64,000 bases of DNA from Gemmatimonadales bacterium (GCA_036002045.1 DASYTT010000037.1:39608-103607); one strand, 5' to 3'; shown: positions 4,911-53,378, counted from the stretch's first letter. Translations and numbers: made by a program. The notes: a model not told the origin generated them from the letters alone.

Positions 4911-4942
4911 CGGAGGGACGGAGGGACAGAGGGCCAGAGGGA
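4911..4942. repeat. Four tandem octamers C(G/A)GAGGG(A/C), which are Shine-Dalgarno-like
   Basis: Read directly: cggaggga cggaggga cagagggc cagaggga. The array begins 2 nt after the phoH stop (TAA 4906-4908) and ends 3 nt before GTG 4946. Confidence 0.85.
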
Positions 4943-4945
4943 CAG

Positions 4946-5353
4946 GTGCTCGTCCAGGGGCGCCACCTTCCGCTCTCCAAAGCCGCTATCGTTCGAACGG
5001 CGCAAACCGTCCTCAGGCGGGAGCGGCGGCAGGCGATCCTCTCGCTCACGTTCGTCGGCCGCGACCGGATGCGCGCGCTGAACACTCGCTGGAAGCGCCG
5101 CTCCGAGTCGACCGATGTGCTCGCCTTCGCACTCGCCGGCCCGGACGGGGCGCTCGCAGGAGACGTCTACATCTGCCGGTCCGTCGCGCAGCGCGAAGCA
5201 CGGGTGCGCCGGATCCCGCTGCGTCAGGAGCTCACCCGCCTCGTGGTGCATGGCGTGCTGCACGTCCTCGGCTACGATCATCCCGACGGCCCGGAGCGGG
5301 AAGCCTCCGCGATGTGGCAGCGTCAGGAGCGCTATGTGAGGATGCTCAGGTGA
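4946..5353 (+). CDS. ybeY: rRNA maturation endoribonuclease YbeY
   Basis: HGVLHVLGYDH zinc motif (HxxxHxxxxxH). Start chosen at GTG 4946, after the octamer array. The alternative ATG 4886 would translate the repeat and overlap phoH by 23 nt. Confidence 0.8.
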   Translation: MLVQGRHLPLSKAAIVRTAQTVLRRERRQAILSLTFVGRDRMRALNTRWKRRSESTDVLAFALAGPDGALAGDVYICRSVAQREARVRRIPLRQELTRLVVHGVLHVLGYDHPDGPEREASAMWQRQERYVRMLR

Positions 5354-6555
5354 TCCGCGCCCTGCTCGCTGCGCTGCAGCTCTGGGTTGCGCCCCTGCTC
5401 GCCGGCCTCTTCACGCTGTGGTCCGCGCTCGTCGCCCTCGCCGAGTACGACGATGCCGGAGTGCCCCGACTGCTCGGGCCTTCCGGCGGGCCGCCGGGCA
5501 GATCGCTCACGCCGGCCCGCAGCCTGCACGTCGTCCATCTGGCGCTGCTGGCCGTAGCGGCGGCCCTCGCGGGAGTCGCGCTCGCGTGGTGGGCCTGGCC
5601 GGTTCCCCAGGCGATCGCCCGTTTTCTCGTGGCAGCGGCCCTGGTATGGATCGTAGGCGAACTCGCTCCGCGCCTCTGGGCGGCCAACGAGCCGGGACTG
5701 ATCCGGTTCGATGGCCGCTTCGTGCAGCACACGCTCACGCTCTTCGGTCCCTTCCTGGCCGCGGTGGCATGGGTCGACCGCGGTTTTCGGATGCGCCGGG
5801 GCTCGACGCTTCCCGCACCGGCCGCCGAACGCAGCATGCTGACCGGCATTCTCGGTCTCGCTGAGATGAGCGTGGCCGAGGTGATGACGCCGCGGCTCGA
5901 CATCATGGGGGTGGACTTCTCCGCCACACGGGAGCAGGTGATCGAGATGTTCCGCAGCGCCGAGCATTCGCGGCTGCTGGTGGTGGACGGCGACCCGGAT
6001 TCGGTAACCGGGGTGATTTATGCCAAGGACTTGCTGCCCGGCCTCGGACCGGAGGTTGGTCCGGCCGATTGGCATCCGCTCATCCGCCCGGTGGGGTTCG
6101 TTCCCGAAGGCAAGACGCTGGATCGCCAGCTGCGCGACTTTCAGCGGAGCGCGAGCCATCTGGTGGTCGTGGTGGACGAATTCGGCGGCACCTCCGGGAT
6201 CGTGACGCTGGAGGATGTGCTCGAGCAAATCGTGGGGGAGATCCGCGACGAGTACGACATCGATGAGGTCGCTCCGGTGCAGCGCCTGCCCGATGGCGGC
6301 TGGGCCGTGCAGGGTGGCGCCCCGCTCGCCGATCTCGAGGCCGAGCTCGGCCATGCCTTCGCGCGGGAAGACGTCAGCACCGTCGGCGGCCTGGTGCTCA
6401 CGCTGTTCGGACGGGTGCCGCGGGCCGGAGAGACGCTGGAGCTGGACGGCTTCCGGCTCACCGTCGACCAAGTGGTGCGCCGGCGGGTTCGCAGGGTGAC
6501 GCTCGCGCAAGTCCTGGGATCCCCACCCGCCAGCTCGCCGGAGTCGCCGAAATGA
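5350..6555 (+). CDS. CNNM/HlyC/CorC-family transporter-associated protein (DUF21 + CBS pair + CorC_HlyC)
   Basis: Membrane N-terminus, CBS-pair region (ARDVMTPR-like MTPRLDIMGV) and C-terminal CorC domain. Start set at GTG 5350, which overlaps the ybeY stop (GTGA). Confidence 0.8.
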   Translation: MIRALLAALQLWVAPLLAGLFTLWSALVALAEYDDAGVPRLLGPSGGPPGRSLTPARSLHVVHLALLAVAAALAGVALAWWAWPVPQAIARFLVAAALVWIVGELAPRLWAANEPGLIRFDGRFVQHTLTLFGPFLAAVAWVDRGFRMRRGSTLPAPAAERSMLTGILGLAEMSVAEVMTPRLDIMGVDFSATREQVIEMFRSAEHSRLLVVDGDPDSVTGVIYAKDLLPGLGPEVGPADWHPLIRPVGFVPEGKTLDRQLRDFQRSASHLVVVVDEFGGTSGIVTLEDVLEQIVGEIRDEYDIDEVAPVQRLPDGGWAVQGGAPLADLEAELGHAFAREDVSTVGGLVLTLFGRVPRAGETLELDGFRLTVDQVVRRRVRRVTLAQVLGSPPASSPESPK

Positions 6556-7742
6556 TCTGGCTCATCGCGGGACTGGCGCTCACGCTCACCGTGTTCGGCG
6601 CAACGGCCGCCGCAGCGCTGATCACTTCCAGCAGGATCCTGCTGGCCGATGTGGTGGCGCGGCGGCTGCGCGGCGGTGGAGAATCGCTCGTCTGGCTGCC
6701 GCCGCTCGAGCGGGACCTCGCCGCGGCCTCGGTCACCACGACGCTCGGGATTGCGATGCTGGGCGCGGTCTTTCCCGCGATGTTCGCGGGAACCCGGCTC
6801 ACGATCTTCGGCCTGTTGCTCGTCTTCGTGGTGCTGCCGACCGTGCTGCTCAGCGGATATGTCCTGCCGCGGTTCTTGACCCGGCGGCATGCCGCACGGG
6901 TTGCCGAGCGGCTGCAGCCGATCCTGCGGCCCTGGTCGGCCGTGCTCGCGGGGATTCTGCCGGCTCCCTCCGTTCAGCCCGAGGCGCTGATCACCGAGCT
7001 CTGGCGTGAGCGCGCCGCCGCGGGCGCGGCGCCCGACGAGCAGCTGCTGCGGGTCGGCGGGGTCATCAGCTTCTCCCAGCGAAGCGCCCGGGAGGTCATG
7101 ACCCCGCGGACCGAGCTGGTGGCGATTCCGGAGGAGGCTTCGGCGGAGGAGGTTCGCCAGGCCTTCATTCAGACCGGATACAGCCGGCTGCCCGTCTATC
7201 GCGGAACCCTGGACGAGATCATCGGGATGGTGCATGCCTTCGATCTCTTCCGCTTGAATCCGGGCGACCCGCTGCCGATTCGCTCGGTGGCCGTGGCCCC
7301 GGCGGGGCGTCCCTGCGGAGACGTACTGCTCGACATGCAGCGGGAACGCCGGCACCTCGCCGTCGTGCTGGACGAATTCGGCGGCACGCTCGGCATCGTC
7401 ACGCTCGAAGACCTGCTGGAGGCCCTGGTGGGTGAGATTGTCGACGAAGATGAACCGGCCGCGCCGGCGGCCGTTCCCCCGGGCCCGGAGCTGCTCGAGG
7501 CGGAAGGCGGCACCCCCGTCGCGGAGCTCGAGGAGCACTTCGGGGTCAGCTTCCCGCCTGGCCAGGCGACGACGATCGGCGGTCGCCTGGTCGAGCTCGC
7601 CGGCCGCTTTCCCTCGAGCGGAGAGCGCTTTCTGATCCGGGGCCTCGAGCTCGATGTGCTGGTGGCATCCGCCACGCGGGTCGAGCGCCTGCTGGTCCGC
7701 CGCGGCTCGCCGGTCTCTACTCCGCTCGATCGCGCGTCGTGA
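6552..7742 (+). CDS. Second CNNM/HlyC/CorC-family protein
   Basis: Same architecture (SAREVMTPRTELV, LDEFGGTLGIVTLEDLLE). ATGA overlap with the upstream paralog. Confidence 0.8.
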   Translation: MIWLIAGLALTLTVFGATAAAALITSSRILLADVVARRLRGGGESLVWLPPLERDLAAASVTTTLGIAMLGAVFPAMFAGTRLTIFGLLLVFVVLPTVLLSGYVLPRFLTRRHAARVAERLQPILRPWSAVLAGILPAPSVQPEALITELWRERAAAGAAPDEQLLRVGGVISFSQRSAREVMTPRTELVAIPEEASAEEVRQAFIQTGYSRLPVYRGTLDEIIGMVHAFDLFRLNPGDPLPIRSVAVAPAGRPCGDVLLDMQRERRHLAVVLDEFGGTLGIVTLEDLLEALVGEIVDEDEPAAPAAVPPGPELLEAEGGTPVAELEEHFGVSFPPGQATTIGGRLVELAGRFPSSGERFLIRGLELDVLVASATRVERLLVRRGSPVSTPLDRAS

Positions 7743-9079
7743 TTCAGCGACGCTCCTTCCAGGATCTCATCGCCCTGCTGCGCGAAGGCAAAATCAGCGA
7801 ATTCCTGGCGCGCAGCCGTCTCCTCGAGCCGGCCGATCTGGCCGATGTGCTCGCGCTGGCGGACGATGAGGAACGGGTCGAGATCGCCAAGCTGCTGCCG
7901 CCCGACCTCACCGGCGAGGCGCTGGTCGAGATGCCCGTGCAGGAGCACGCCGAGGCGACGCTTGCGGCGCTGTCGCCGGAGCAGGCAGCGGGCATCGTTC
8001 AGGAGATGCCCGACGACGATGCCGCCGACCTCCTCGGCGAGCTGCCGCGGGAGCAGCAGCAGCGCATCCTGTCGCAGGTGGACTTCGATGAGCGCATCAC
8101 GGTCGAGCGGCTCCTGGTGTACAGGGAGGACACTGCCGGCGGCCTGATGACCAGCGCGCTGGTGACGGTGGGCCAGGACGCCACCGTGCGCGAGGCGCTC
8201 GAAAGCATCCGCAAGCAAGCCGCGGAGATCGAAGATTTCACCGAGACGTACGTGGTCGACCGACAGCAGCGCCTGGCGGGGGTGCTCGGGTTCAAGGGAC
8301 TTGTGCTGAGCGCGCCCGAGCGCCCGGTCCGGGAGCTCATGGAAGCCGCGGAAGTGACCGTGCCTCCCGACATGGACCAGGAGGACGTCGCCCGTCTCAT
8401 GGCGCGCTACAACGTGCCGAACATCCCCGTCGTGGACCGGGACCGGCGCTTGCTCGGGCGAATCACCTTCGACGATGTGACGGACGTCGTGGAAGAGGAG
8501 ACTACCGAGGATCTGCTGCGCTTCGGGGGCGTTTCGGCGGGGGAGGAGCTTGGCGCACGCTGGTATGAGGCCGTGAAGACGCGGCTTCCCTGGCTCTTCG
8601 TGAACCTGATCACCGCCTTTGTGGCGGCGGCAGTCGTCGCGCTGTTCACCCCCGTCGTCCGCGCCCTGCCGGCCCTCGCCGCGTGGATGACGATCATTTC
8701 GGGAATGGGCGGGAACGCAGGAACCCAGACCCTCGCCGTCACGGTGCGCCGGCTCGCGCTCGGCCTCATCGCTCCCTCGGCCTTCGTTCGAGTGATCGGG
8801 AAGGAGGTGATGGTCGGCCTGGCGTGTGGAGTCGCCAACGGGATCGTGGTCGCGCTGGCGGCGGTGCTCTTTCGCCAGCCGGTTATCCTCGGTTTCGTGG
8901 TATGCCTCGCTATGGTCGGAAACCTCTTCGTCGCCGGATTTGCGGGCGCGTTCATTCCGCTCTTGCTCGAGCGCTTGCGCATCGATCCGGCGATCGCGTC
9001 GTCGGTCTTCGTGACGACATTCACGGATGTCTGCGGTTTCGCGCTGCTGCTCGGGCTCGGCGGCTGGCTGTTGCTCTAG
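7739..9079 (+). CDS. mgtE: Magnesium transporter MgtE
   Basis: N-terminal MgtE_N acidic domain, CBS pair, and a C-terminal 5-TM domain with GMGGNAGTQ. GTGA overlap with the upstream gene. Confidence 0.85.
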   Translation: MIQRRSFQDLIALLREGKISEFLARSRLLEPADLADVLALADDEERVEIAKLLPPDLTGEALVEMPVQEHAEATLAALSPEQAAGIVQEMPDDDAADLLGELPREQQQRILSQVDFDERITVERLLVYREDTAGGLMTSALVTVGQDATVREALESIRKQAAEIEDFTETYVVDRQQRLAGVLGFKGLVLSAPERPVRELMEAAEVTVPPDMDQEDVARLMARYNVPNIPVVDRDRRLLGRITFDDVTDVVEEETTEDLLRFGGVSAGEELGARWYEAVKTRLPWLFVNLITAFVAAAVVALFTPVVRALPALAAWMTIISGMGGNAGTQTLAVTVRRLALGLIAPSAFVRVIGKEVMVGLACGVANGIVVALAAVLFRQPVILGFVVCLAMVGNLFVAGFAGAFIPLLLERLRIDPAIASSVFVTTFTDVCGFALLLGLGGWLLL

Positions 9080-9099
9080 GCCTCTGATACCTTGGAGCC

Positions 9100-10137
9100 A
9101 TGGATTTCGACAGCCTGCTCGCCGAGCTGGGCTCCGGGCGCACCGCCGCGCTGGCACGCGCCATTTCCCTGGTGGAGAATGGCCGGCCCGGCTTCGAGCA
9201 GCTGCTCGCCGCAGTGCATCCGCGACTCGGCCACGCGCAGCGGATCGGCATCACGGGTCCTCCGGGGGCGGGCAAATCGACCCTCACCCAACAGCTGGTG
9301 CAGCGCTGGCGGGAGCGGGGGCTGACGGTGGCCGTGGTGGCGGTGGATCCCACCAGTCCCGCGACAGGCGGCGCGCTGCTGGGCGACCGAATCCGGATGG
9401 AATCCATCGCGCTCGATCAGGGCGTGTACATCCGCTCCATGGCGACGCGGGGATCGCTGGGAGGGCTCGCCACCAGCACGCGGGAGGTGTGCGACGTCCT
9501 CGATGCCGGCGGCTACCATCGCATCCTGATCGAAACGGTGGGGGTGGGCCAATCCGAGCTCGCCGTCACCAGCATGGCGGACAGCACGGTCCTGGTCCTG
9601 GTGCCTGAATCGGGCGACGGGATCCAGGCGCTCAAAGCGGGGGTCATGGAGCTGGCGGATATCTTCTGCGTCAACAAGGCGGACCGGCCCGGCGCGGCAA
9701 ATCTCGCCCGGGAGATCGAGGTGACGCAGGGAATCCGGCGGGGAAATGCGTTCCGGGGAATTCGGGCGCACCACGGCGTGGTGGGAAGACGGGAAGCAGA
9801 TGCGGGGGAGAGTGGTAGCCTCCCTCCGAGCTGGGAAGCTCCGGTGCTCCTCACGACCGCCACCACGGGAAGCGGTATTGCGGAGCTCGCCGAGGCGCTC
9901 GAACGGCACCATGAATGGATGAAACAGACCGGTGAGCTCGCGAGGCGGCGACGCAAGCGCTTTGCGGCACGGACCCGGGAAGTCGTGGATCGCGCGATGC
10001 ACCGCTGGGTCTGGGGAGACACGCGGGCGGAGGAGTTGCTGAGCGAACGAATCGACGAGGTCGCTGCGGGCCGACTAAGCCCGTACGAGCTGGCAGCCGA
10101 GATCGTGACCGGCCTCAAGGAGGGAGCGCGGGTATGA
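9100..10137 (+). CDS. meaB: Methylmalonyl-CoA mutase-associated G-protein chaperone (MeaB/ArgK)
   Basis: P-loop [22 protein letters not shown] and NKADR motifs. Sits immediately upstream of the mutase. Confidence 0.85.
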
Positions 10138-11798: not shown

Positions 11799-11805
11799 GA
11801 GCCCA

Positions 11806-12972: not shown

Positions 12973-13075
12973 GTGACAGGTGGCAGGTGGCAGGTGGCAG
13001 GTTGCAGGTGCACCCTCCGCCGCCGCCTACCCGCCACCTACCTGCCACCTGCCACCTGTCACCTGTCACCTGAGG
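12973..13075. repeat. Heptamer-array hairpin, element A (GTGGCAG / CCTGCCA units)
   Basis: The left arm holds 5-6 tandem heptamers and the right arm 5-6 complementary heptamers. I paired 12973-13002 with 13040-13069 base by base: 30 bp, made of 29 Watson-Crick pairs plus one G.T(U). It starts 1 nt after stop TAA 12970-12972. Its last unit overlaps the GAGGAG SD of the next gene. Confidence 0.9.
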
Positions 13076-13081
13076 AGTCCT

Positions 13082-13495
13082 ATGCCGCTCAGCCGCCCTA
13101 TTCGGGTGCTGGTAGCTAAACCGGGGCTCGACGGCCACGACCGCGGCGCCAAGGTAGTGGCCGCGGCGCTGCGCGACGCGGGGATGGAGGTCGTCTATAC
13201 CGGCCTCCACCAGACTCCGGAAATGATCGCGACCGCGGCTGTGCAGGAAGATGTGGATGTGGTAGGTCTCTCGATTCTGAGCGGCGCCCACATGACGCTC
13301 TTCCCCAGAGTGCGGACTCTGCTCGATGAAATGGGGCGCCGGGATGTCCTGCTCACCGGGGGTGGCATCATTCCCGGCTCCGACATCGAAGCGCTGCAGC
13401 GGCAGGGTGTCGGGAAGCTGTTTGGTCCCGGCACCCCGACCAGCGAGCTGATCAGCTACATCAAATCCTGGGCGGCCGGACACCTTGAGCGCTGA
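13082..13495 (+). CDS. Acyl-CoA mutase B12-binding (small) subunit
   Basis: 138 aa with the cobalamin DxHxxG motif ([12 protein letters not shown]) and GGIIP. ATG 13082 is preceded by GAGGAG. Confidence 0.85.
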
Positions 13496-15122: not shown

Positions 15123-15125
15123 TTC

Positions 15126-24360: not shown

Positions 24361-24624
24361 ATGGCTCATAAGAAGGGCGTCGGCTCGTCCAAGAACGGCC
24401 GCACCAGCAATCCCCAGTACCTGGGCCTCAAGAAGTTCGGCGGCGAGCGCGTGCTCGCCGGCAACATCATCATGCGCCAGCGGGGGACCAAGTTTCACGC
24501 CGGCAAAAACGTCCGTCGCGCCAACGACGACACGCTCTTCGCCCTGATCGATGGAGTGGTCGCGTTCGAGTGGAAAGACAAAGGCCGCCAGAAGATCTCA
24601 GTGTATCCGGAGGCGGCAGTGTAG
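24361..24624 (+). CDS. rpmA: 50S ribosomal protein L27
   Basis: [14 protein letters not shown]...[10 protein letters not shown] is canonical L27. Confidence 0.95.
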
Positions 24625-24716
24625 GGGTTGGGGGTTGGGGATAGGGATCGGGGACTCCAAAGGGGTCCCCTTTTTTGCGCCGCTGCGTTTCCCAACCCTA
24701 ACCCCTGACCCCCAGG
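24624..24716. repeat. G-rich/C-rich repeat-array hairpin, element D, enclosing the rpmA terminator
   Basis: Left arm GGGGTTG GGGGTTG GGGATAG GGATCGG starts at the last base of stop TAG 24622-24624. Right arm is CCCAACC CTAACCC CTGACCC CC at 24691-24713. The arms are imperfectly complementary. Confidence 0.75.
24650..24676 (+). terminator. Rho-independent terminator of rplU-rpmA
   Basis: GGGGACTCC-AAA-GGGGTCCCC (9 bp, one G.U) followed by TTTTTT at 24671-24676. Confidence 0.8.
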
Positions 24717-24781
24717 CCCTAATACATTGAAACCTTCACGGCGAGGGACCCGTCATTTCGGCACACCTGAGTGAGGAAACC

Positions 24782-27295: not shown

Positions 27296-27338
27296 GGGAT
27301 TCGCAATCCTCGTTTCTAGCTGATGGCTGATGGCCTTC

Positions 27339-28622
27339 CTAGGGCTCTCGTGGGGGCAGGGTGCGGTACTTGTCTCTGAGCTCCGTCTCCCGCGTCGCCA
27401 GGGAGGTGAGCTGCCCCCTGATGTAGACCCGCTCGGCGGCGCTCTTGAAATCGAACGGGTCGCCGGACCAGACGACGAGGTTGGCCACCTTGCCCGGCTC
27501 GAGCGTGCCATAGTCGGCCAAACCGAAGGCGGCAGCCGGTGCCGCCGTGATGGCCGCGAGGGCATCGTCCCAGCTCAAGCCGTTGCGCACGGCGTTACCG
27601 GCGGCGTAGCGAAGATTCCGCTCGCCTCCCGGATCGCCCTGGGCAATGATGACCTTGACGCCCGCTTCGCGCAGCAGGGTGACGTTGTCGAGCCGCGCAC
27701 CCAGCCCATCGAAGCTGGGAATGTCCTGAAGCGGCTCGAGCGCGACCGGAATTCCCGCCGCGGCAAGCTGCCTTGCCAGCTGCCAACCCTCGACGGCACC
27801 GAACAACACCGTGCGGAGCTTGTACTCCCGCGTGAGGCGCAGCGCGTTCTCGATGTCCATGCGACGGTTGGCCGCGATCGCGATGGTCTGCTCGCCGCGG
27901 AGCACCGGCAACAGGGCTTCGAGCTCTTTGGCCGGAGCCGAGAGCGACTGCATCGCGGCGCGCTGAAAGTCCGCCTTGCGGCGCGAGTATTCGAGCGCAT
28001 CGTCGAACAGCCTCCGGACTCGCGCCATGACGCCGGCGCGGCTGCCGCCTCCCGCCTCCCGAGAGCCACTGGAAAGGTCGAGCCCGATGGCGGCATTACG
28101 GCGGATGAGCATGTCTTCAATCCGCTCGCCGGCATAGTCCACGGCCGGTGCCTGCCCGGGGAAGAACGCCCCACCGGGCACCAGGATCGCGCTGGTGATC
28201 CCTCCGGTCCGGGCGATGGGAATCGTGAATGCGGCGGGGTCTACTGCCTCGATGGGGTTGAAGGAGGGATTCACCTCTCCGCGCACGGCACCCTCGCCTA
28301 ACCCGTTGAGACCAGCGACCCCCAGCCCCGCGTTCGCATTGGCGTGGATCAGACCGGGTGTCACCCACTTCCCGCTCGCGTCCACCCGTACCGCCCCGGA
28401 GGGAATCGTCAGGTTCGTCCCCACGGCGACAATCCGTCCGTTGCGGATGAGCACCGTTGCATTGGAGAGCCTGGGCCCGGACACCGGGTAGACCGTGCCC
28501 CCGGTGATCGCGATGGTCTGAGCCCGAAGAGTCGCCGGCAGCAGGCACGCCAGCGCGAGGAAAGTGACGATCGTGGTGGCACGGGCCACCCGATAGCTGA
28601 TAGCCGATCGCTGATGGCTCAT
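27339..28622 (-). CDS. Amidohydrolase-superfamily protein, probably non-catalytic paralog, secreted
   Basis: Amidohydrolase fold by similarity to its neighbour, but the metal ligands are replaced (PGLIHANANAG where the neighbour has PGIIDTHSHLG; VIIAQGDPGG versus VIHTDSPDG). Start at ATG 28622, an ATGA overlap with the upstream gene. Has a signal peptide. Confidence 0.7.
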   Translation of the reverse strand: MSHQRSAISYRVARATTIVTFLALACLLPATLRAQTIAITGGTVYPVSGPRLSNATVLIRNGRIVAVGTNLTIPSGAVRVDASGKWVTPGLIHANANAGLGVAGLNGLGEGAVRGEVNPSFNPIEAVDPAAFTIPIARTGGITSAILVPGGAFFPGQAPAVDYAGERIEDMLIRRNAAIGLDLSSGSREAGGGSRAGVMARVRRLFDDALEYSRRKADFQRAAMQSLSAPAKELEALLPVLRGEQTIAIAANRRMDIENALRLTREYKLRTVLFGAVEGWQLARQLAAAGIPVALEPLQDIPSFDGLGARLDNVTLLREAGVKVIIAQGDPGGERNLRYAAGNAVRNGLSWDDALAAITAAPAAAFGLADYGTLEPGKVANLVVWSGDPFDFKSAAERVYIRGQLTSLATRETELRDKYRTLPPREP

Positions 28623-40761: not shown

Positions 40762-40800
40762 GGCGGAGGGATCAGCACAGCATCGAGGAGTCGTCGAGCC

Positions 40801-41553: not shown

Positions 41554-41580
41554 CCGGGGCACTCGTACCGCGAGGACGCC

Positions 41581-44387: not shown

Positions 44388-44398
44388 ACTTAAGGCCG

Positions 44399-44481
44399 GC
44401 CCGAGTGGCGGAATGGCAGACGCAGCGGACTCAAAATCCGCCGGGGGCAACCCCGTGCGAGTTCGACTCTCGCCTCGGGCA
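44399..44481 (+). tRNA. tRNA-Leu (anticodon CAA), type II with a long variable arm
   Basis: I folded the cloverleaf by hand. Acceptor GCCCGAG/CTCGGGC, anticodon stem GCGGA/TCCGC with loop CT-CAA-AA, variable arm CGGGGGCAACCCCGT, T arm GCGAG-TTCGACT-CTCGC, discriminator A. No CCA is encoded. Confidence 0.9.
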
Positions 44482-44485
44482 TGGT

Positions 44486-44595
44486 GGCTATGGGCTATGG
44501 GCTATGGGCTGTTGGTCGAAAAAACGTTGTTGCGAGCACTGGAACCCGAGCTACAAGGAGCAGCCGATAGCCCATAGCCCATAGCTCATAGCTCC
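44486..44595. repeat. Heptamer-array hairpin, element C (GGCTATG / TAGCCCA units)
   Basis: Left arm is GGCTATG x3 plus GGCTGTT at 44486-44513. Right arm is CAGCCGA TAGCCCA TAGCCCA TAGCTCA TAGCTCC at 44561-44595. Positions 44491-44511 pair with 44561-44581 (21 bp, one mismatch). The loop is about 49 nt. The element starts 5 nt after the tRNA 3' end. Confidence 0.9.
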
Positions 44596-44625
44596 ATTAC
44601 GTTCCGTCCTTTCCACCCCGACTCA

Positions 44626-46101: not shown

Positions 46102-47981
46102 GCCGCGCCCTCTTCGCGGCGGCGCTGCTGTTCGCCGCGGGGGTCGCCCGGCTCGAGGCGCAAGTGGTCGATACCACCCGGGCGGATTCGCTGGCCCGGG
46201 CCGACACGACCGATTACACGGCGCTCTTCCTCAAGTCTCAACAAGAATCCAAGCGACTCATTCCCGTCGCCCCGCGGATCGGCGCAGCGACCCTGCTGCC
46301 GCCGGGCAGCCGCATGGTTCTGGATCGGGATTCCATCCTGTGGCACGGGGCGGAAACCGTGAGCGACCTGCTGACCCGCGTACCGGGAGTCTATTTGCTG
46401 CGAGGGGGCTGGGCGGGCCGTCCCGAGCTGCCGGCCTTTCAGGCCCACGGCGCCACCTCGGTGAGCTACGTGCTGGACGGCTTTCCCATCGTCCCGCTGG
46501 GGCAGGACAGTGTGATGGTCGACCCGTCCCTGCTGCCGCTCAGCTTCCTCGATCGGATCGAGATCGAGCGGATTCCCGGGCAGCTTAAGGTGTGGCTCTT
46601 CACGCGGCGCAACGATCGCAGCGCGCCGTACAGCAGCATCGGCATCGCCAGCGGGGATTTGCAGATAGCGCGCTACCAAGGCCAGCTGGAGAAGCGCAGC
46701 GCAAGAGGACCGGGCGTGGCACTGGCGTTCGACCATTTCGACGTGCCTGCGCAGCAGGGACAGCTGGGGAACTACGGGAACACGCAGGCCTGGATCAGGC
46801 TGGAGTATCTGCGCAACGCGCACGCCGGCGCCGAGCTGCAATTCTTCCGCAACTCGCCCGAGCGCGAGCCGGTTCTCACAGAGGGCTCGACGGGAGATAC
46901 GCTGAGCCGCGCCCGCTCGGGGACCCGCGGCGACCTCACCGCGCGGATCTTCCTGGCACCGGGCGACAATGGACTCGGGCCGAGTCTGGACGTCCTGGCG
47001 AGTCGCTCGAGCTGGACCGACGATATCGAGAAGGACTCGACGCGCATTATCGCCGATGTGCTCGACTCCCTGGGGAACGTGACGGGCCAGGACACCAGCT
47101 ACCAAATCGACAAGCATCATCGCGCGGTGACCCAGCTCGGAGCGGTGGCGGGTTACCGGCTGCCCGCCGCCTGGCTCGTCGGCACGCTCTTCTGGCGCTC
47201 GGCCTGGACGCCGTTGGATTTGAGAGTGCAGGGCGCCGTGTCGCCCTTCTCCCGCATCACGCTGAGCGCGGACGCGGTCTATCTGCGGCACGAAGCATCC
47301 CGTCACAGCCAATGGCTTACGGCGCGCGCCGGGCTCCTGCTCCCGCTGGGTTTCGCGGCGAGCGCCGTCTGGCGCAGGGGCAGCGAGGTCACGGTCCCGG
47401 CCATTCGCGCCGATTCGGCGCAGACGGTCGACGACCGCAGCGTGAGCCTCGCCTGGCGGACCTCTTTCGCCGAGCTGGAAGGGACCTTTTCCAGCAACGC
47501 AGGGTTTCAGCCCACCGGCTACGCGCAGTATCCGGCATTGGTGAGCCTGGCTCCCAGCGGCAGAACCAATTGGCTGAGCCTGAGCGGACGCATTGCCCCG
47601 CGTCAATGGCTCAGTGTGAGCGGATGGTACAACACGCCACGGGCTCCGCGCCCTGAAGGACAGCCGCCCGGCCACGCGCTGGTGCACGCCACCATCCAAA
47701 GCAAGTTTCTTCCGACCTTCAAGAGCGGGATCTTCAACCTGAAGCTGCAAGTGAGTCTCGAGCGCTGGGGTGCCGGGATTCTGGGGCGCGATAGCACCGG
47801 AACCGAGCTGACCCTGCCGGCGGCGACCTTCTATCGTGGCTACATCGGACTCCAGCTCGGCAGGTTTACCGCCTACTACGACCGCTACAACATGCAGGGG
47901 AGCACATTCAGCTATGTGCCCGGGCTGCCCATCCCGAAGTACGTGAGCACCTTTGGGGTGCGCTGGGAGTTCGCTAACTGA
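46098..47981 (+). CDS. Outer-membrane beta-barrel protein with a TonB-dependent-receptor plug-like N-terminal domain
   Basis: Start at GTG 46098 (GTGA overlap with pepA). Signal peptide. Plug-like block TVSDLLTRVPGVYL...SYVLDGFPI...IERIEIERIPG. The long C-terminal part has alternating (beta-strand-like) residues and ends RWEFAN. Confidence 0.55.
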   Translation: MSRALFAAALLFAAGVARLEAQVVDTTRADSLARADTTDYTALFLKSQQESKRLIPVAPRIGAATLLPPGSRMVLDRDSILWHGAETVSDLLTRVPGVYLLRGGWAGRPELPAFQAHGATSVSYVLDGFPIVPLGQDSVMVDPSLLPLSFLDRIEIERIPGQLKVWLFTRRNDRSAPYSSIGIASGDLQIARYQGQLEKRSARGPGVALAFDHFDVPAQQGQLGNYGNTQAWIRLEYLRNAHAGAELQFFRNSPEREPVLTEGSTGDTLSRARSGTRGDLTARIFLAPGDNGLGPSLDVLASRSSWTDDIEKDSTRIIADVLDSLGNVTGQDTSYQIDKHHRAVTQLGAVAGYRLPAAWLVGTLFWRSAWTPLDLRVQGAVSPFSRITLSADAVYLRHEASRHSQWLTARAGLLLPLGFAASAVWRRGSEVTVPAIRADSAQTVDDRSVSLAWRTSFAELEGTFSSNAGFQPTGYAQYPALVSLAPSGRTNWLSLSGRIAPRQWLSVSGWYNTPRAPRPEGQPPGHALVHATIQSKFLPTFKSGIFNLKLQVSLERWGAGILGRDSTGTELTLPAATFYRGYIGLQLGRFTAYYDRYNMQGSTFSYVPGLPIPKYVSTFGVRWEFAN

Positions 47982-47983
47982 AA

Positions 47984-48062
47984 GGTGGCAGGTGGCAGGT
48001 GGCAGGTGGCAGGGAGGTGGTAGCACCTGCAACCTGCAACCTGCAACCTGCGACCTGCAACC
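47984..48062. repeat. Heptamer-array hairpin, element B (GGTGGCA / CCTGCAA units)
   Basis: Left arm is GGTGGCA x4 at 47984-48011. Right arm is CCTGCAA x3, CCTGCGA, CCTGCAA at 48026-48060. The apex is GGTG-GTAG-CACC. The arms are complementary 6 of 7 per unit. It starts 2 nt after stop TGA 47979-47981. Positions 47983-48007 are identical to 12978-13002. Confidence 0.9.
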
Positions 48063-48072
48063 ATTATCTTTC

Positions 48073-48957
48073 ATGGCTATGCCGCTGAGCATGACGGGCT
48101 TTGGTGCAGCCGAGGGATCGGTCGCTGGCGGAGTACTTCGGGTAGAAATCCGGAGTGTGAACCATCGATTCTTTCATCTGGCCGCGAAGCTGCCCGGCGA
48201 CCTGGGGGCGTTTGAGATAGACTTGCGCGACCGGCTGCGCCGGGAATTCGAGCGGGGGCATTTGGCGGTGCAGATCCGCTGGAGCAGCGCGCCCACCGCG
48301 GCGGTGGGAACCCTGGCGGTCAATGCGGAGCGGGCACGGGAGGCAGCGGGGCGGCTCCGGGAGCTGCAGGTGGCGGCGGGGCTAAGCGGCGAGATTCCGC
48401 TCGACCTCATCGCGCGACAGCCCGATGTCTTCGTGGCCTCGGACGCGGAGACCAGCGCGGCCCAGTGGGGCGAACTGGAGCCGATCGTGGCCAGTGCCGC
48501 CGCGCAATGCAGGGAAGCGCGGCTGCGTGAAGGCTCCGTGCTGGCCGGCGAGCTGTGCGGGCTGCTCGCGACGATCCGCCACGAGGCGGAACGAGTTGCC
48601 GGACGCGCCCCGGAGCGACTGATCCACGAGCGGGAGCGCATTCGCAAGGTGGTGACCGAGCTGCTTGACGGGCGGGCGGTCGACGAACAGCGCCTCGCGC
48701 AGGAGATCGCGTTTCTGGCGGAGCGGATCGACATCAACGAGGAGCTGGTGCGGCTGCGAGCCCACCTGGACGCCTGCCTGGAAGCGCTGGGGAGTGACGC
48801 ACCGGTCGGCAAGCGGTTGGGCTTTCTGGCGCAGGAGCTCGGTCGCGAGATCAATACCATCGGGTCAAAGGCGAACGACACCGCGATGCAGCATGCCGTC
48901 GTCGCCATGAAGGGAGAGCTGGAGCGATTCCGGGAACAGCTCGAGAACTTGGAGTAG
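48073..48957 (+). CDS. yicC: YicC-family stress-induced protein / endoribonuclease
   Basis: N-terminal SMTGFG, the RSVNHRF block and C-terminal EINTIGSKAND...K.ELE..REQ.QN.E. Start is ATG 48073; 48079 or 48091 are also possible. Confidence 0.8.
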   Translation: MAMPLSMTGFGAAEGSVAGGVLRVEIRSVNHRFFHLAAKLPGDLGAFEIDLRDRLRREFERGHLAVQIRWSSAPTAAVGTLAVNAERAREAAGRLRELQVAAGLSGEIPLDLIARQPDVFVASDAETSAAQWGELEPIVASAAAQCREARLREGSVLAGELCGLLATIRHEAERVAGRAPERLIHERERIRKVVTELLDGRAVDEQRLAQEIAFLAERIDINEELVRLRAHLDACLEALGSDAPVGKRLGFLAQELGREINTIGSKANDTAMQHAVVAMKGELERFREQLENLE

Positions 48958-48971
48958 CGCCGTTCCTGCTC

Positions 48972-49598
48972 GTGCTTTCCTCGCCATCCGGGGGCGGGAA
49001 ATCCACGATTGCGCGTCATCTCCTCGAAGCGCGCGAGGACGTGACCTATTCGGTGTCGGCTACGACCCGGCCGATCCGCAATGGGGAGGAAGACGGCCGG
49101 CACTATCACTATCTCTCGCGCGCGGAGTTCTCGCGGCGCGCCGACGCGGGAGAGTTTGTCGAGTGGGCGGAGTACGGCGGGAACCTGTACGGCACGCTTC
49201 GCTCGGAGGTCGAGCGCGGGCTCTGCGCGGGGCGCCACGTGGTCCTCGACATCGACGTGGAGGGCGCGCGACAGGTCCGCGAGCAATACCCGGATTCGGT
49301 GCACGTATTCGTCTTGCCGCCTTCCGCCGCAGTGCTCGTGCAGCGGCTGCGGACGCGGAACACCGAGGACCTCGCGGCCATCGAGCGACGCATCGGCATC
49401 GCCGCCGGCGAGCTGCGCGCCGCGAAGGACTATGATTACGTCGTCGTCAACGACGATTTCGTCGAAGCCGTGGCGCACGTTGCGGCGATTCTCGATGTGG
49501 AAGCGCGTCGCCTGCGCCGGCTGACCAATCTCGCGGAAGTCATCGACAACCTGCAGCAGGATCTTGCCGGATTGCAGCAAAAGCTGCGCAAGGAGTAA
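48972..49598 (+). CDS. gmk: Guanylate kinase
   Basis: P-loop SSPSGGGKST and SATTRP.R.GE.DG..Y.F. Conserved yicC-gmk-rpoZ order. Confidence 0.9.
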   Translation: MLSSPSGGGKSTIARHLLEAREDVTYSVSATTRPIRNGEEDGRHYHYLSRAEFSRRADAGEFVEWAEYGGNLYGTLRSEVERGLCAGRHVVLDIDVEGARQVREQYPDSVHVFVLPPSAAVLVQRLRTRNTEDLAAIERRIGIAAGELRAAKDYDYVVVNDDFVEAVAHVAAILDVEARRLRRLTNLAEVIDNLQQDLAGLQQKLRKE

Positions 49599-49601
49599 AC
49601 G

Positions 49602-49829
49602 ATGGAGATCTTTACGCCGACCGACGCCGCGCGCAACGCCGGCACCAAGTACCGGTCCATCTTGGTCGCCGCGCGGTTCGCGCGGTATCTGAACGAGTTC
49701 CCCAAGGATCGCCAGGTCCAATGGGCCGAGAATGAACGCGCCATGAAGCTGACGACGCTTTCCATGCGTAAGCTCGTCTCCGGCGAGTTGAATTTCCGCG
49801 AGCTCAGGCGCCGCCGCTCCGAAGTCTGA
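49602..49829 (+). CDS. rpoZ: Probable RNA polymerase omega subunit (divergent)
   Basis: 75 aa immediately after gmk. The core KYRSILVAARFARYL resembles the omega NRY.LV..AAKRARQL helix. Assignment rests largely on synteny. Confidence 0.5.
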   Translation: MEIFTPTDAARNAGTKYRSILVAARFARYLNEFPKDRQVQWAENERAMKLTTLSMRKLVSGELNFRELRRRRSEV

Positions 49830-49839
49830 GACCCGCCGC

Positions 49840-50652
49840 GTGAGCGATTCGCGGCGCCGCTACCTGGCCATCCAGCGCGAGCTGGGCGGGAACGAGGTCA
49901 TTCTCTCGGCTCCGCTCGGCAGGTCAGTCGGTGAGGACGGCGAGGTCAGTGCGGTCAGTGAGGTCGGTGAGGTCAGTTCTCCGTCCCCACCGTCCTCACC
50001 GTCCTCACCGCCCAACTGGCGTCGCGGCGCCCCCCCGATTCCCGACACGCCCGGCCTTAGCGTCGTTGCCCCGCCGCGTGGCCTGATGGACCCGCCGCCG
50101 GAGTGGAACACCCTCGAGGAAGTCAGCAGCGCGATCGCGGTCTGCCGCAGCTGCTTTCTGTGCGAGGGCCGTACCCGGACGGTGCCGGGAGAGGGAAGCC
50201 CGCGCGCCGAACTGCTGTTCGTCGGAGAGGGGCCCGGTCAGGTCGAGGATGCGACCGGGCGGCCGTTCGTGGGACGAGCCGGGGAGCTGCTCACCCAGAT
50301 CATCGAGGCCATCGGACTGCGTCGCGAGGATGTTTTCATCGCGAATGCCGTCAAGTGCCGTCCGCCGCAGAATCGCAAGCCGCTGCCCGACGAGCTCGCC
50401 GCCTGCTGGCGCTACCTCGAGCGCCAAATCGAGCTGCTGCGCCCCAAAGTGATCGTCGCCCTGGGTGCAACCGCGGCCGAAACTCTGCTCCAGGTCCGGC
50501 GGAGTCTCGCGGAACTGCGCGGCAGAGTACATTCTTACCGTGGCATCCCGCTGGTGGTGACCTATCACCCGGCGGCCCTCCTCCGCAACCCGAATTGGAA
50601 GAAGCCGACCTGGGATGACATCCGTATCGCCCGACAGCTTCTCGACCGTTGA
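49840..50652 (+). CDS. Uracil-DNA glycosylase, family 4 (Fe-S type) with an N-terminal extension
   Basis: C..C.LC, GEG.P.AELLFVGEGPG..ED..G.PFVG.AG.LL and HP..LLR blocks. The N-terminal roughly 90 aa include the repeat-encoded segment. Confidence 0.8.
   Translation: MSDSRRRYLAIQRELGGNEVILSAPLGRSVGEDGEVSAVSEVGEVSSPSPPSSPSSPPNWRRGAPPIPDTPGLSVVAPPRGLMDPPPEWNTLEEVSSAIAVCRSCFLCEGRTRTVPGEGSPRAELLFVGEGPGQVEDATGRPFVGRAGELLTQIIEAIGLRREDVFIANAVKCRPPQNRKPLPDELAACWRYLERQIELLRPKVIVALGATAAETLLQVRRSLAELRGRVHSYRGIPLVVTYHPAALLRNPNWKKPTWDDIRIARQLLDR
49921..50012. repeat. 9-mer-array inverted repeat, element E, in frame inside udg
   Basis: Left arm is GAGGTCAGT GCGGTCAGT GAGGTCGGT GAGGTCAGT, preceded by GGTGAGGACGG. 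Right arm is CCGTCCCCA CCGTCCTCA CCGTCCTCA CCG. GGTGAGGACGG (49930-49940) is exactly complementary to CCGTCCTCACC (49990-50000 and 49999-50009). It translates as RSVGEDGEVSAVSEVGEVSSPSPPSSPSSPP. Confidence 0.85.
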
Positions 50653-52006
50653 ACAATCGCTCCGGGCCGCTCCCTGGAGCCCGGAGGCGGAGCAGGCGGT
50701 GCTGGGCGCGATGCTGCTCGACCAGGACGCCGCGCTCAGGGCCGCGGAGCTGCTGGACTATGGGATGTTCTACCGCGAGGCGCATCGGCGGCTCTTCCGC
50801 GCGATGGTCGCGCTGACCGAGCAGCGGATCGTCATCGACCACATCACCCTGCGCGACGAGCTGCTCCGCCGCAACGAGCTCGAAGCGGCCGGCGGGATCG
50901 AATACCTCGCGGAGCTGGTGGACGTGGTGGCGACCCCGGCCAACCTCGAGCATCACGCGCGGATCCTGCGCGAAAAATCCATTCTCCGCCGCCTGATCGA
51001 GGCCTCTACCGGGATCATCCAGCAGGCTTACGACGGCCGGCTCGGGGCCAACGAGCAGCTCGACGAAGCCGAGGGGCGGATTTTCCGGATCTCCCAGGAG
51101 CGCCGCCAGGACGGCTTTACCCGCATCAAGGAAATGCTCTGGCCGACGATGGAGCGGATAGAAATGCTCCATCGCAGCGGCACAACGGTTACCGGAGTTC
51201 CCAGCGGATTCACAGATTTGGATGGATTGACGTCGGGCTTTCAACGCTCCGAGCTGATCATCGTGGCGGCGCGGCCCTCGATGGGGAAGACGGCGTTCTG
51301 CCTCAACATCGCGACCAACGCGGCCCACAAGGGCACCGGAGTCGCCATTTTCTCGCTGGAAATGTCGAAGGATGCGCTGGTGCAACGGATGCTCTGTGCG
51401 GAGGCATTGATCGACAGCCAGGCGGTACGCCAGGGGCGCATCAAGGACTCGGATTATCCCAAGCTGGCCCGGGCGTCCGGCATCCTGCAGCAGTGTCCCA
51501 TCTGGATCGACGACACGCCCGCGCTCACGCTGCTGGAAATGCGCGGCAAGGCCCGGCGGCTGCGGGCCGAGGTGGAAGTCGGCATGATCATCGTGGACTA
51601 TCTGCAGCTGATGCGCAGTCCCGAATACGCCGAAAACCGAGTCCAGGAAATCTCGGATATTTCTCGCTCGCTCAAGGCACTGGCCCGCGAGCTGCAGATC
51701 CCGGTGCTGGCGCTCTCGCAGCTGTCCCGGGCGTCAGAGCAGCGAGGCGGCGGCAAGGAGCCGATGCTCTCCGATCTGCGCGACTCCGGCGCCATCGAGC
51801 AGGACGCCGATATCGTGATTTTCATTCATCGTCCCGAGATGTACAAGGATCTGCGCGAGAAGGCCGAAAACGCGGGGACCAACATCGAGGGGCTGGCCGA
51901 AATCCACCTCGCCAAGCATCGCAACGGTCCCACCGGGAACCTCAAACTGCATTTCCACAAGCAGTTCACCCGCTTCGACAGCCACTCCGAGCGCGAGGCG
52001 ACCTGA
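50615..52006 (+). CDS. dnaB: Replicative DNA helicase DnaB
   Basis: PEAEQAVLGAMLLD N-terminal motif, Walker A ARPSMGKTAF, and the IIVDYLQLM and LSQLSR blocks. Confidence 0.9.
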   Translation: MTSVSPDSFSTVEQSLRAAPWSPEAEQAVLGAMLLDQDAALRAAELLDYGMFYREAHRRLFRAMVALTEQRIVIDHITLRDELLRRNELEAAGGIEYLAELVDVVATPANLEHHARILREKSILRRLIEASTGIIQQAYDGRLGANEQLDEAEGRIFRISQERRQDGFTRIKEMLWPTMERIEMLHRSGTTVTGVPSGFTDLDGLTSGFQRSELIIVAARPSMGKTAFCLNIATNAAHKGTGVAIFSLEMSKDALVQRMLCAEALIDSQAVRQGRIKDSDYPKLARASGILQQCPIWIDDTPALTLLEMRGKARRLRAEVEVGMIIVDYLQLMRSPEYAENRVQEISDISRSLKALARELQIPVLALSQLSRASEQRGGGKEPMLSDLRDSGAIEQDADIVIFIHRPEMYKDLREKAENAGTNIEGLAEIHLAKHRNGPTGNLKLHFHKQFTRFDSHSEREAT

Positions 52007-52007
52007 G

Positions 52008-53378
52008 GTGGCTCGCGGCCGCTCGGTCTATCGCTGCGCCGAGTGCGGCCACGATCACCCCAAGTGGGCAGGGCGCTGCGAGGCTTGTGGTGAGTGGAAT
52101 ACGGTGGCGGAGGAGCCGGTCTCGGTCGGTCGGACGGTCGGACGGTCGGGCGGTCGGTCAAAAGCCTTACCGACCTCCCCGACCTCACCGACACCACTGT
52201 CCGACGTTCAGGAATCCCGCCTGGTTCGCTGGACGACCGGAATTCCTGAATTCGATTTCGTGATCGGTGGGGGCATCGTCCCCGGCTCGATGGCCTTGAT
52301 CGGCGGCGAGCCGGGCATCGGCAAGTCCACGCTGCTGCTGCAAACCGCGGCGAGGTTGCGCGCTCAGGGTCGCCACGTGCTGTATGCGAGCGGCGAGGAG
52401 TCCCCCGAGCAGATTCGTCTCCGCGCCGATCGCCTGGTGGAGGACGCCGGGCCGGTGCTGGTCCTGGGGGAGACCCGGCTAGAGGAAATCGTCGCGGCAG
52501 CCCGCTCCACCGGCGCCGAGCTGCTGGTGCTCGACTCGATCCAGACTGTCTACACCGACGAGCTTGAGGGCGCTCCCGGCAGCGTCGGTCAGGTGCGCGA
52601 ATGTGCCGCGCGGCTGATGCGTTTCGCCAAGGAGAGTGGCACCGCCGTCTTCGTGGTGGGCCACGTGACCAAGGGCGGGGCCATCGCGGGTCCGAAGACG
52701 CTGGAGCACATCGCGGACACCGTGCTCTACTTCGAAGGCGAGGGATCGCTCGACTACCGGCTGCTGCGCGCCACCAAGAACCGCTTCGGCTCCGTGGATG
52801 AGCTGGGGGTCTTCTCCATGTCCGAGCGAGGGCTCTCCGCCGTGGCCAACCCTTCCGCGGTGTTTCTTGCCGCGCGTTCCGCAAGCAGCACCGGGAGCGC
52901 GGTCACCGCGCTCATGGAAGGCACCCGACCGGTCCTGGTCGAAGTGCAGGCGCTCGCCGCCCCTTCGGGCTACGGCACTCCCCAACGGGTAGCCACTGGG
53001 CTCGATCCCAAACGGCTGGCGGTGCTGCTCGCGGTGCTCGAGCGGCGGGGTGGGGCGAGCTTTGCGCAGCTGGATGTCTTCGTGCAGGTCACCGCCGGCG
53101 TGCGGCTTCGCGAACCCGGAGCGGATCTGGCCGTGGCGGCCGCGCTGCTCTCCAGTCTCCATGGCCGGCCGACTCCAGCCGACTCGCTTTACCTGGGAGA
53201 AATCGGGCTCGGCGGGGAAATCCGCCCCATCGGGGGCCTGGAGCGCCGGCTGGCCGAAGCGGGCAGGCTGGGCTTCCGCCGGGCCTTCGGATCGTCGCGC
53301 CAGGGCTCGGAGATCCCCGGACTTCGGCACATTCCGCTCTCCCATGTCGACGAGCTGGTCCGCGCCCTTGCCGCTTGA
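52008..53378 (+). CDS. radA: DNA repair protein RadA/Sms
   Basis: C4 zinc finger (YRCAECGHDHPKWAGRCEACGEW), Walker A GEPGIGKSTLLLQ, KNRFG motif and a Lon-like C-terminal domain. Confidence 0.9.
   Translation: MARGRSVYRCAECGHDHPKWAGRCEACGEWNTVAEEPVSVGRTVGRSGGRSKALPTSPTSPTPLSDVQESRLVRWTTGIPEFDFVIGGGIVPGSMALIGGEPGIGKSTLLLQTAARLRAQGRHVLYASGEESPEQIRLRADRLVEDAGPVLVLGETRLEEIVAAARSTGAELLVLDSIQTVYTDELEGAPGSVGQVRECAARLMRFAKESGTAVFVVGHVTKGGAIAGPKTLEHIADTVLYFEGEGSLDYRLLRATKNRFGSVDELGVFSMSERGLSAVANPSAVFLAARSASSTGSAVTALMEGTRPVLVEVQALAAPSGYGTPQRVATGLDPKRLAVLLAVLERRGGASFAQLDVFVQVTAGVRLREPGADLAVAAALLSSLHGRPTPADSLYLGEIGLGGEIRPIGGLERRLAEAGRLGFRRAFGSSRQGSEIPGLRHIPLSHVDELVRALAA
52117..52197. repeat. GGTC-rich / CCGACC-rich inverted repeat array, element F, in frame inside the radA linker
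   Basis: Left arm is CGGTC TCGGTC GGTC GGACGGTC GGACGGTC GGGCGGTC GGTC at 52117-52159. The loop is CAAAAGCCTT. Right arm is CCGACCTCC CCGACCTCA CCGACACCA at 52170-52196. GGTCGGT (52152-52158) pairs with ACCGACC (52169-52175), and GGTCGGG (52144-52150) pairs with CCCGACC (52178-52184). It translates as VSVGRTVGRSGGRSKALPTSPTSPTP. Confidence 0.8.

Follow-up and report, generated by a model that had tools for sequence, protein, structure and literature searches.

The 64,000-nt stretch of DNA analysed here, referred to below as the window, comes from the Gemmatimonadales lineage, has a GC content of 64-72%, and carries a set of hairpin elements (A to F) whose arms are arrays of short tandem units. 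The RadA protein encoded in it is 88% identical to RadA of uncultured Gemmatimonas assemblies, the best 75 related loci all belong to Gemmatimonadota, and two metagenome samples of the Joint Genome Institute hold contigs identical to parts of the window. Arrays were detected with Tandem Repeats Finder (TRF), arms were paired with an inverted-repeat finder, and predicted RNA folds were compared with 200 dinucleotide shuffles. TRF recovered the arrays where an earlier note on this DNA had placed them, and the inverted-repeat finder directly paired the arms of A, C and E. The elements, and two further sets of arrays (G and H) that the same note had grouped with them, are the following.

Element A, 12973..13072, + strand: 5' arm (GTGGCAG)x5.4 at 12973-13010, centre of 29 nt, 3' arm (ACCTGCC)x4.7 at 13040-13072 (TRF); occupies the spacer between a baeRF-family gene (stop TAA 12970-12972), 0 nt from the TAA, and the gene for the B12-binding subunit of methylmalonyl-CoA mutase (ATG 13082).
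Element B, 47983..48062, + strand: 5' arm (AGGTGGC)x4.4 at 47983-48013, centre of 11 nt, 3' arm (ACCTGCA)x5.4 at 48025-48062 (TRF); separates a TonB-plug outer-membrane protein gene (stop TGA 47979-47981) from yicC (ATG 48073), beginning 1-2 nt past the TGA.
Element C, 44486..44597, + strand: 5' arm (GGCTATG)x3.6 at 44486-44510, centre of ~50 nt, 3' arm (AGCCCAT)x5.0 at 44562-44597 (TRF); begins 4 nt past tRNA-Leu(CAA) (44399-44481) and ends 28 nt short of pepA (44626).
Element D, 24623..24719, + strand: G-rich degenerate heptamer arm (GGGGTTG...) at 24623-24649, unique centre, C-rich arm at 24690-24719; begins at the TAG of rpmA (L27).
Intrinsic terminator in the centre of D, 24650..24676, + strand: GGGGACTCC-AAA-GGGGTCCCC followed by T6.
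Element E, 49927..50010, + strand, in frame: 5' arm (GTCAGTGAG)x5.7 at 49927-49977, 3' arm (CCGTCCTCA)x3.3 at 49981-50010 (TRF).
Element F, 52122..52192, + strand, in frame: 5' arm of GGTCGGAC type with period 4/8 at 52122-52159, 3' arm (CCTCACCGA)x3.1 at 52165-52192 (TRF).
Array H, 4913..4945, + strand: single array (GGAGGGAC)x4 without inverted partner (TRF), filling the spacer from the phoH stop (4906-4908) to the next GTG (4946).
First array of G, 27319-27334: a 2-unit repeat in the 43-nt spacer of minus-strand genes.
Second array of G, 28592-28619: covers the opening codons of a minus-strand gene whose start resembles a signal peptide.

The description of A to F as hairpins with tandem-array arms is borne out by their predicted RNA folds, with z-scores of −8.8 for A (−73.8 kcal/mol), −8.3 for B, −7.8 for C, −3.9 for D, of which TRF calls the left arm only (24624-24640), −3.4 for E, and −2.2 for F, which is the weakest hairpin and marginal. 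In the stem of B each unit has a single mismatch, G·A or G·G, as had been reported, and this regularity recurs in many metagenome loci. Element E encodes GRSVGEDGEVSAVSEVGEVS / SPSPPSSPSSPP within an N-terminal extension of a family-4 uracil-DNA glycosylase (UDG), while F sits in the RadA linker that joins the zinc ribbon to the ATPase domain; the 9-nt units pointed out in the right arms of both have a TRF period of 9, and both lie in genuine coding sequence with the frame kept. The claim of shared cores stands: A and B have a run of 25 identical nt, and a 12-nt stretch of E is the exact reverse complement of one in F. Matches of 8 and 12 nt are not significant when set against the whole 64 kb and carry weight only because they are located between or in two array elements.

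G and H do not belong with the hairpins. H, which starts 2-4 nt past the phoH stop, is a related tandem array and forms no hairpin. Each of its units (GGAGGGAC) holds a perfect Shine-Dalgarno-like GGAGG, and the array runs right up to the GTG of the next gene. The reading of G as two arms of one element was discarded, as the two arrays are unrelated, short and 1.26 kb apart, one of them is coding, and neither is a hairpin.

Copies of A and D are identical in independent contigs and samples, and an identical copy of D is present in locus L001. The identity of A in two samples indicates stability of the elements on the time scale of populations. Exact-protein look-ups with yicC and gmk gave no match, and those with L27 and the B12-binding subunit returned only contigs of the same population carrying identical elements, so that no copy-number variation was measurable.

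The proposal of one architecture with locus-specific units extends well beyond the window. A census with TRF covered the window and 81 further loci (1.32 Mb from ~75 Gemmatimonadota genomes); genes were called from the GC content of third codon positions (GC3), with approximate start codons. Matching of units (equal period, reverse-complement units, at most 200 nt apart) gave 34 inverted pairs against 6 direct ones, the latter mostly at the same loci. When 355 non-redundant arrays were instead aligned to their surroundings with a partner score of at least 16, inverted partners numbered 66, direct partners 3, and partners in a complement-only control 8. The merged census comprises 37 elements. 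Among the 42 paired intergenic arrays, 37 have a period of 7. The arms hold a median of 4.25 copies, and the centres measure 10-120 nt, often with a GC hairpin of their own inside. This architecture is common to the whole lineage. Scanning the window against Rfam 15 at gathering score returned the tRNA and no other family, and an incomplete literature search for Gemmatimonas found no description of such elements in the lineage.

The elements obey a strict rule of position. By site they fall into 20 in co-directional spacers, 2 in convergent spacers, 10 that are intragenic and 5 unassigned; none lies in a divergent spacer, though divergent spacers make up 18% of intergenic bases (P ~0.013). Within co-directional spacers, 16 of 18 elements begin at most 5 nt past the upstream stop codon, where uniform placement would give 5.6 (p < 1e-5); at the other end, just 1 of 18 comes within 5 nt of the following start codon. 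The start next to a stop codon or tRNA end that had been noticed for the intergenic members of the window holds for A, B, C, D and H. Preferential inversion of the arms and enrichment at stop codons, two of the points on which the earlier note had staked its proposal, both hold in the census. A 5' arm with a stop triplet is found in 16 of the 27 intergenic elements (27% expected, p = 6e-4); a 7-nt period places such a triplet in all three frames within three units, and in several elements the stop codon of the gene itself lies inside the first unit.

A second rule concerns polarity. The G-rich arm is 5' and the C-rich arm 3' in 31 elements, 5 are neutral, and 1 is weakly reversed. Since a palindrome reads alike on both strands, this order is independent of gene direction, and it makes the strands whose 3' ends face the centre the G-rich ones. 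The same order was found outside the census, where a scan of metagenome contigs for (GGTGGCA)3.3 gave 120 loci (L082-L201). These contigs range from 33 to 74% GC, which places the array in many unrelated organisms; with the array read along its G-rich strand, an inverted partner lay downstream in 19 cases (~16%) and upstream in none. Ordinary hairpins in the array-free spacers of the census loci are distributed 43 to 37 between the stop side and the start side, and their polarity is weak (83 vs 67). Adjacency and polarity are therefore specific to array hairpins, and the idea that they were inherited from ordinary 3' hairpins was abandoned on these counts. Three candidate causes of the polarity can be named: a template switch made when the polymerase runs into a second arm whose template strand is G-rich, selection against a C-rich 5' arm that would lie open in RNA and permit Rho loading, or a repair process that extends 3' ends.

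The (GGTGGCA)n arrays of A (12973-13010) and B (47983-48013) contain GCAGGTGG, which is one mismatch away from the E. coli Chi site, GCTGGTGG. The arm polarity matches what Chi sites would need to shield both ends of a break in the loop. A reading of the arrays as Chi sites was put aside, given several unrelated units in one genome.

The order of pepA, the TonB-plug gene, yicC, gmk, the UDG gene, the gene at 50615-52006 and radA is kept across the group, so that orthologous sites can be compared, and this comparison reveals rapid turnover. At the site of B, between the TonB-plug gene and yicC, the window carries (GGTGGCA)n and its nearest relative, L002, a 50-nt spacer without a hairpin; (GGGAGTT)n is present in L005 and (TAGGGAC)n in L017, L050 has a degenerate heptamer hairpin, and many other species have plain GC hairpins. 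The junction between the gene at 50615-52006 and radA is a spacer of 0-2 nt in most species. At this junction L020 and L040 carry (GAGTTCC)n elements of 107-173 nt, L034 and L058 carry others, and L035, a close relative of L040, is empty (TGA-CC-ATG). Four different units occupy the junction of comF and gap in L019, L039, L048 and L050. The junction that follows pepA holds related GTGAA-type units in L026, L031, L036, L047 and L050, which indicates that some elements persist while their unit drifts. One dispersed homologous family, as the earlier note had supposed, does not fit sites that hold different units in different species and are empty in the nearest relative; the elements are instead a class made repeatedly.

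Units are nonetheless not distributed at random among genomes. With at most one mismatch allowed after rotation, 7 of 27 within-genome pairs of elements share a unit (26%), compared with 15 of 639 between-genome pairs (2.3%; permutation p < 2e-4). Two copies in L039 (3427 and 11840) agree even in the order of their variant units. The centres and ends of copies that share a unit are unrelated (A and B, the L039 copies, the L050 copies). Something must therefore copy arrays, or favour particular units, inside a genome.

The in-frame copies follow the same pattern within proteins. The N-terminal extension of UDG (window 49840-50184 and orthologues), which has no Pfam match, consists of RRYLxxQxELGGxEVILS, a hypervariable linker, and W+KGAPPIPGPG, with the motifs kept in >40 species, and array hairpins occur at the place of E in L006, L034, L039, L043 and L049. 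The RadA linker is likewise hypervariable in all species, and array hairpins with other units and periods of 8-10 nt, stronger than F, are found there in L003, L009, L028, L037 and L049. Its length stays at 63-102 nt with or without arrays, which implies that the arrays arose in place within an existing linker and not by mobile insertion. The analogy with Rickettsia palindromic elements drawn for the in-frame copies was accordingly given up: there is no lengthening of the linker, and the coding copies in RadA and UDG share no conserved sequence. In L047 (2895-2977) and L050 (678-835), translation of the element after pepA yields the predicted signal peptide of the TonB-plug protein. Its charged n-region, MKSEKRGWEKRE, is encoded by the purine-rich 5' arm, and its hydrophobic core, which reads LVLFTLHFSLFTAFLL in L047 and LFTVHRSLFTVLLFTVHCSLFTL in L050, by the C/T-rich 3' arm. 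In the window, the second array of G is placed comparably, at the start of a gene.

Several patterns within the arms bear on how they are made. The arms co-vary. In A, both arms have GTGACAG variants at their outer ends. L020 pairs GAGTACC with a mirroring GGTACT, a T-to-A change matched by A-to-T, and this pair of changes is absent from the orthologous L040. Right arms made of ACCTGC plus C, A or G are present in many independent metagenome loci, with the mismatch at a constant position of the unit, as in B. Each arm is thus also homogenised separately, which gives one mismatch per unit. Taken together, the arm patterns fit slippage within arms combined with template switching between arms, both of which are established mutational mechanisms; template-switch mutagenesis at quasi-palindromes was reportedly described by Ripley in 1982 and in later work with E. 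coli. For the heptamer repeats of bacteria, a slippage process that favours 7 nt has already been put forward (PMC4692102). Together the two mechanisms predict a changing unit number, correction of the arms toward each other and equivalence of both strands. Unlike the other precedents considered, they are mutational processes and no families of elements; neither is known to produce such arrays, and by themselves they do not predict the G-first order.

These data have led us to propose, with slightly less than even confidence, that the elements are fast-evolving "palindromic microsatellites", quasi-palindromic sequences shaped at the level of DNA, with secondary effects in RNA. In this model a short G/T-rich unit, usually of 7 nt and often containing a stop triplet, would slip to ~4-5 copies immediately after a stop codon. 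A reverse-complement array would then arise, and would stay matched to the first, through template switching between the arms of the quasi-palindrome, while separate homogenisation of each arm would leave one mismatch per unit. Arrays already in the genome may seed new copies elsewhere. Selection would spare the elements only in unconstrained sequence, that is, after the stop codon in co-directional or convergent spacers, in disordered linkers and in signal peptides. Once both arms are transcribed, hairpins of −50 to −100 kcal/mol are predicted, and these would probably act as 3'-end barriers or terminators where canonical terminators are few, as a secondary effect.

A number of results weigh against this proposal. 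Neutral slippage by itself explains neither the strict stop adjacency nor the strict polarity (31 vs 1 in the census, 19 vs 0 in the metagenome set), and the sharing of units within a genome goes beyond simple slippage. Elements of 100-180 nt stand between genes that abut in relatives, which looks like insertion, and growth from 0-2 nt is hard to picture. Element A shows no copy-number difference between the two samples. Slippage and template switching are, moreover, processes deduced from the arm patterns. Polarity, stop adjacency and within-genome sharing, left unexplained by simple slippage, are the reason for continuing interest in these elements.

An alternative, which we consider possible but doubtful, is that the elements are selected RNA structures: stem-loops of 3'-untranslated or intercistronic regions that would terminate transcription, guard the upstream coding sequence against 3' exonucleases or insulate cistrons, with slippage serving as an easy route to a longer stem. 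Such a role would account for the extreme fold stability (z down to −8.8), the start at stop codons, the absence from divergent, promoter-bearing spacers, the compensatory changes between arms, and the simple GC hairpins that species without arrays have at the same site. It also has a precedent in the cyanobacterial short tandemly repeated repetitive (STRR) hairpins, which were proposed to stabilise transcripts or couple translation (PMC2670836). Selection on RNA would, however, predict more G·U than A·C on the sense strand, and the stems show no such excess (58 G·T vs 75 A·C, p = 0.17); nor is there any consistent bias between sense and antisense fold energies. Copies that code for parts of RadA, UDG and signal peptides cannot be terminators, the site of the closest relative is empty, and one mismatch per unit is tolerated.

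Terminators speak on both sides of the same question. In the 38 kb scanned, terminator-like matches outside D are at shuffle level, and a hairpin plus T tract is convincing at one place alone, inside D; canonical intrinsic terminators appear to be rare in this genome, a point in favour of the RNA reading. In D, L082 and L111, however, a canonical terminator lies between the arms, and an efficiently terminated transcript would miss the 3' arm. A, B and C were themselves rejected as intrinsic terminators, since no T tract lies past the 3' arm and their centres measure 11-50 nt.

That the elements are non-autonomous mobile DNA we regard as unlikely. They would resemble REPINs, hairpins built from repetitive extragenic palindromic (REP) sequences, or miniature transposable elements with inverted repeats (MITEs), and would be moved into gene ends, perhaps as single-stranded hairpins, by an enzyme acting in trans that recognises the heptamer arrays of the genome. 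This idea draws on the units common to loci of one genome, with even their variant order retained (L039 3427/11840; A and B in the window), on clean presence and absence between abutting genes (L040 vs L035), on the repeated occupation of the same junctions by different units, and on the tight placement of one end at a fixed landmark, the stop codon. It is at odds with termini that are not conserved, with the lack of a visible target-site duplication, and with centres that differ between copies of the same unit. The units are also diverse within one genome, the window alone having GGTGGCA, GGCTATG, GGGGTTG and 9-mers, and the RadA linker arrays lie in place at unchanged length. A tblastn search of 2.0 Mb of loci for a REP-associated tyrosine transposase (RAYT), a weak test in which this genome is represented by 64 kb, gave no credible match, the best (E > 0.07) being to ComF-type phosphoribosyltransferase genes. 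For the Xanthomonas repeats discussed below, Rehm et al. saw no association with mobile elements (PMC4692102).

A broader conception, for which the likelihood seems low to us, would make the elements part of a class of self-copying DNA found across phyla (Gemmatimonadota, Xanthomonas, cyanobacteria and others). Existing arrays would template new copies through a specific process, either coupled to replication or repair or driven by an enzyme, in which G-rich repeats would be added on strands whose 3' ends face the centre; insertion would take place at gene ends, and the arrays would serve as raw material for linkers and signal peptides. A G-rich 3'-end polarity of this kind is that of Chi sites or telomeric repeats around a break.

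It is very unlikely that the arrays are regulatory G-quadruplex or i-motif elements, as was concluded for Xanthomonas and Nostoc, with about four G-tract units selected to form a quadruplex. The G-rich polarity and the ~4 units per arm do match the published pattern (PMC4692102), and D, with its GGGG tracts, and C, with GGG every 7 nt, could form quadruplexes. Most units, however, have no run of three or more G (GGTGGCA, GAGTTCC, AGAGTCT, GCTAACG, CAGTGAA) and yet share the ~4 copies and the position rules, and the G-rich arm is paired with its partner in a duplex or hairpin. Because the units are diverse and mostly lack G3, the preference for four units and the rules of position need no quadruplex, contrary to the published interpretation. 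Finally, although the window, like most of the sequences it was compared with, comes from a metagenome assembly, a chimeric fold-back made in amplification or assembly is almost certainly not the explanation, as A and D are identical in independent contigs and samples, the elements are embedded among conserved syntenic genes in dozens of assemblies from different pipelines, the coding copies preserve the frame, and the architecture is known from finished Xanthomonas genomes.

The closest precedent, overlooked by the earlier note, is the GGGAATC (GGGNATC) heptamer repeat of Xanthomonas, which obeys the same position and polarity rules. It occurs as arrays of ~4 units, with 70-75 convergent, stem-loop capable pairs per genome (Rehm et al. 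2015, PMC4692102). The G-rich strand is sense within 50 bp past the stop codon (overlap with the stop included) and antisense within 50 bp upstream of the next open reading frame (ORF), and the repeats are frequent where the flanking ORFs run in one direction, but seldom found where these diverge or within coding sequence (PMC4692102). Their length and sequence vary widely among close relatives, they have no link to insertion sequences, and they were read as quadruplex-forming, with no function found (PMC4692102). The elements described here share with them the period of 7, the ~4 units, the convergent pairs, the G-rich strand running toward the centre, the position after stop codons and the scarcity between divergent genes. 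They differ in that Xanthomonas uses essentially one unit per genome, with G3 tracts, whereas Gemmatimonadota have many unrelated units that are mostly incapable of forming a quadruplex, and Gemmatimonadota copies also lie in frame in linkers and signal peptides.

The analogy with the STRR sequences of cyanobacteria, which the earlier note had drawn, holds as well. These form intergenic hairpins between co-transcribed genes such as hupS and hupL, with a proposed role in transcript stabilisation or translational coupling (PMC2670836); one is cited as lying inside a structured gene, that for RNase P RNA (Vioque 1997, as listed in PMC2858038), and Nostoc has few paired inverted arrays (PMC4692102). 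Both groups consist of intergenic tandem arrays with a unit of 7 bp, and in both a genome holds several unit families. STRR sequences, in contrast, are mostly single arrays of low-GC filamentous or heterocyst-forming cyanobacteria, their unit sequences differ, and adjacency and polarity were not quantified there. The unit CCCCAGT of L017 (5888-5967) is identical to STRR1 of cyanobacteria, which we take to be a coincidence. The Gemmatimonadota elements are the same kind of object as the Xanthomonas and STRR heptamer hairpins, in a new phylum.

Other known families are more distant, in agreement with the view that the elements are unlike REP sequences, bacterial interspersed mosaic elements (BIMEs) and MITEs. 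They resemble REP sequences, BIMEs and REPINs in being intergenic, in lying at gene 3' ends, in forming long hairpins of two inverted halves, and in having genome-specific families. The REP unit, however, spans 20-40 nt, is itself imperfectly palindromic, begins with a conserved 5' tetranucleotide and is near-identical over hundreds of copies, whereas here the arms are non-palindromic arrays with no conserved terminus, and at least five types of unit are found among the six elements of the window. A MITE was rejected because no duplication is visible at the filled and empty sites of L040 and L035 and because the centres of the A/B, L039 and L050 copies are unrelated. The tandem repeats of Borgs are described as fast-evolving, both intergenic and in frame, and as a source of low-complexity or disordered protein segments (PMC9879509). 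The Borg repeats differ in being direct, not paired and inverted, and in belonging to archaeal extrachromosomal elements.

The elements bear on a general question about bacterial genomes and have consequences for proteins and annotation. By their in-frame copies, a single mutational process can write both halves of a signal peptide, or a linker that is Gly/Val/Glu-rich and then Ser/Pro/Thr-rich, and this is a route to low-complexity protein. The elements also account for many spacers and spurious ORFs in Gemmatimonadota assemblies. Among the long microsatellites of bacteria, none is as over-represented as heptamers. The reason for this excess becomes testable in Gemmatimonadota, which offer many unit families, sites both occupied and vacant, and rules of position and polarity that are strictly kept.

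A few other repeats and motifs were noticed in the same loci. A motif like TTATCTTTC stands a few bases before start codons and directly after several elements, and may be a promoter or leader signal of the lineage; it was seen at 48063-48071 in the window, upstream of yicC in L002, L004 and L005, and at about 12794 in L026 and 11875 in L034. Matches to sigma-70-type promoters in the window are at or near chance level. A dispersed repeat, GTCATCCYGAGCGNAGCGARGGATC, often a long perfect palindrome and REP-type in appearance, lies in spacers of several Gemmatimonadales genomes (L046 at about 3000-3260 and 8332-8567, L019 at 9864-9991, L041 at about 3250-3276, and L031 at about 4800-4880). Spacers that follow the TonB-plug gene in L031, L032, L033, L036, L046, L047, L050 and L054 have a conserved outer frame, opening with TAG-(G/A/T)TGAG...GTAA and closing with a CCCTACCA-like sequence around a variable interior of 140-310 nt. 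In L043, at about 9070-10000, the 930-nt spacer upstream of radA contains three tandem copies of a ~300-nt unit.

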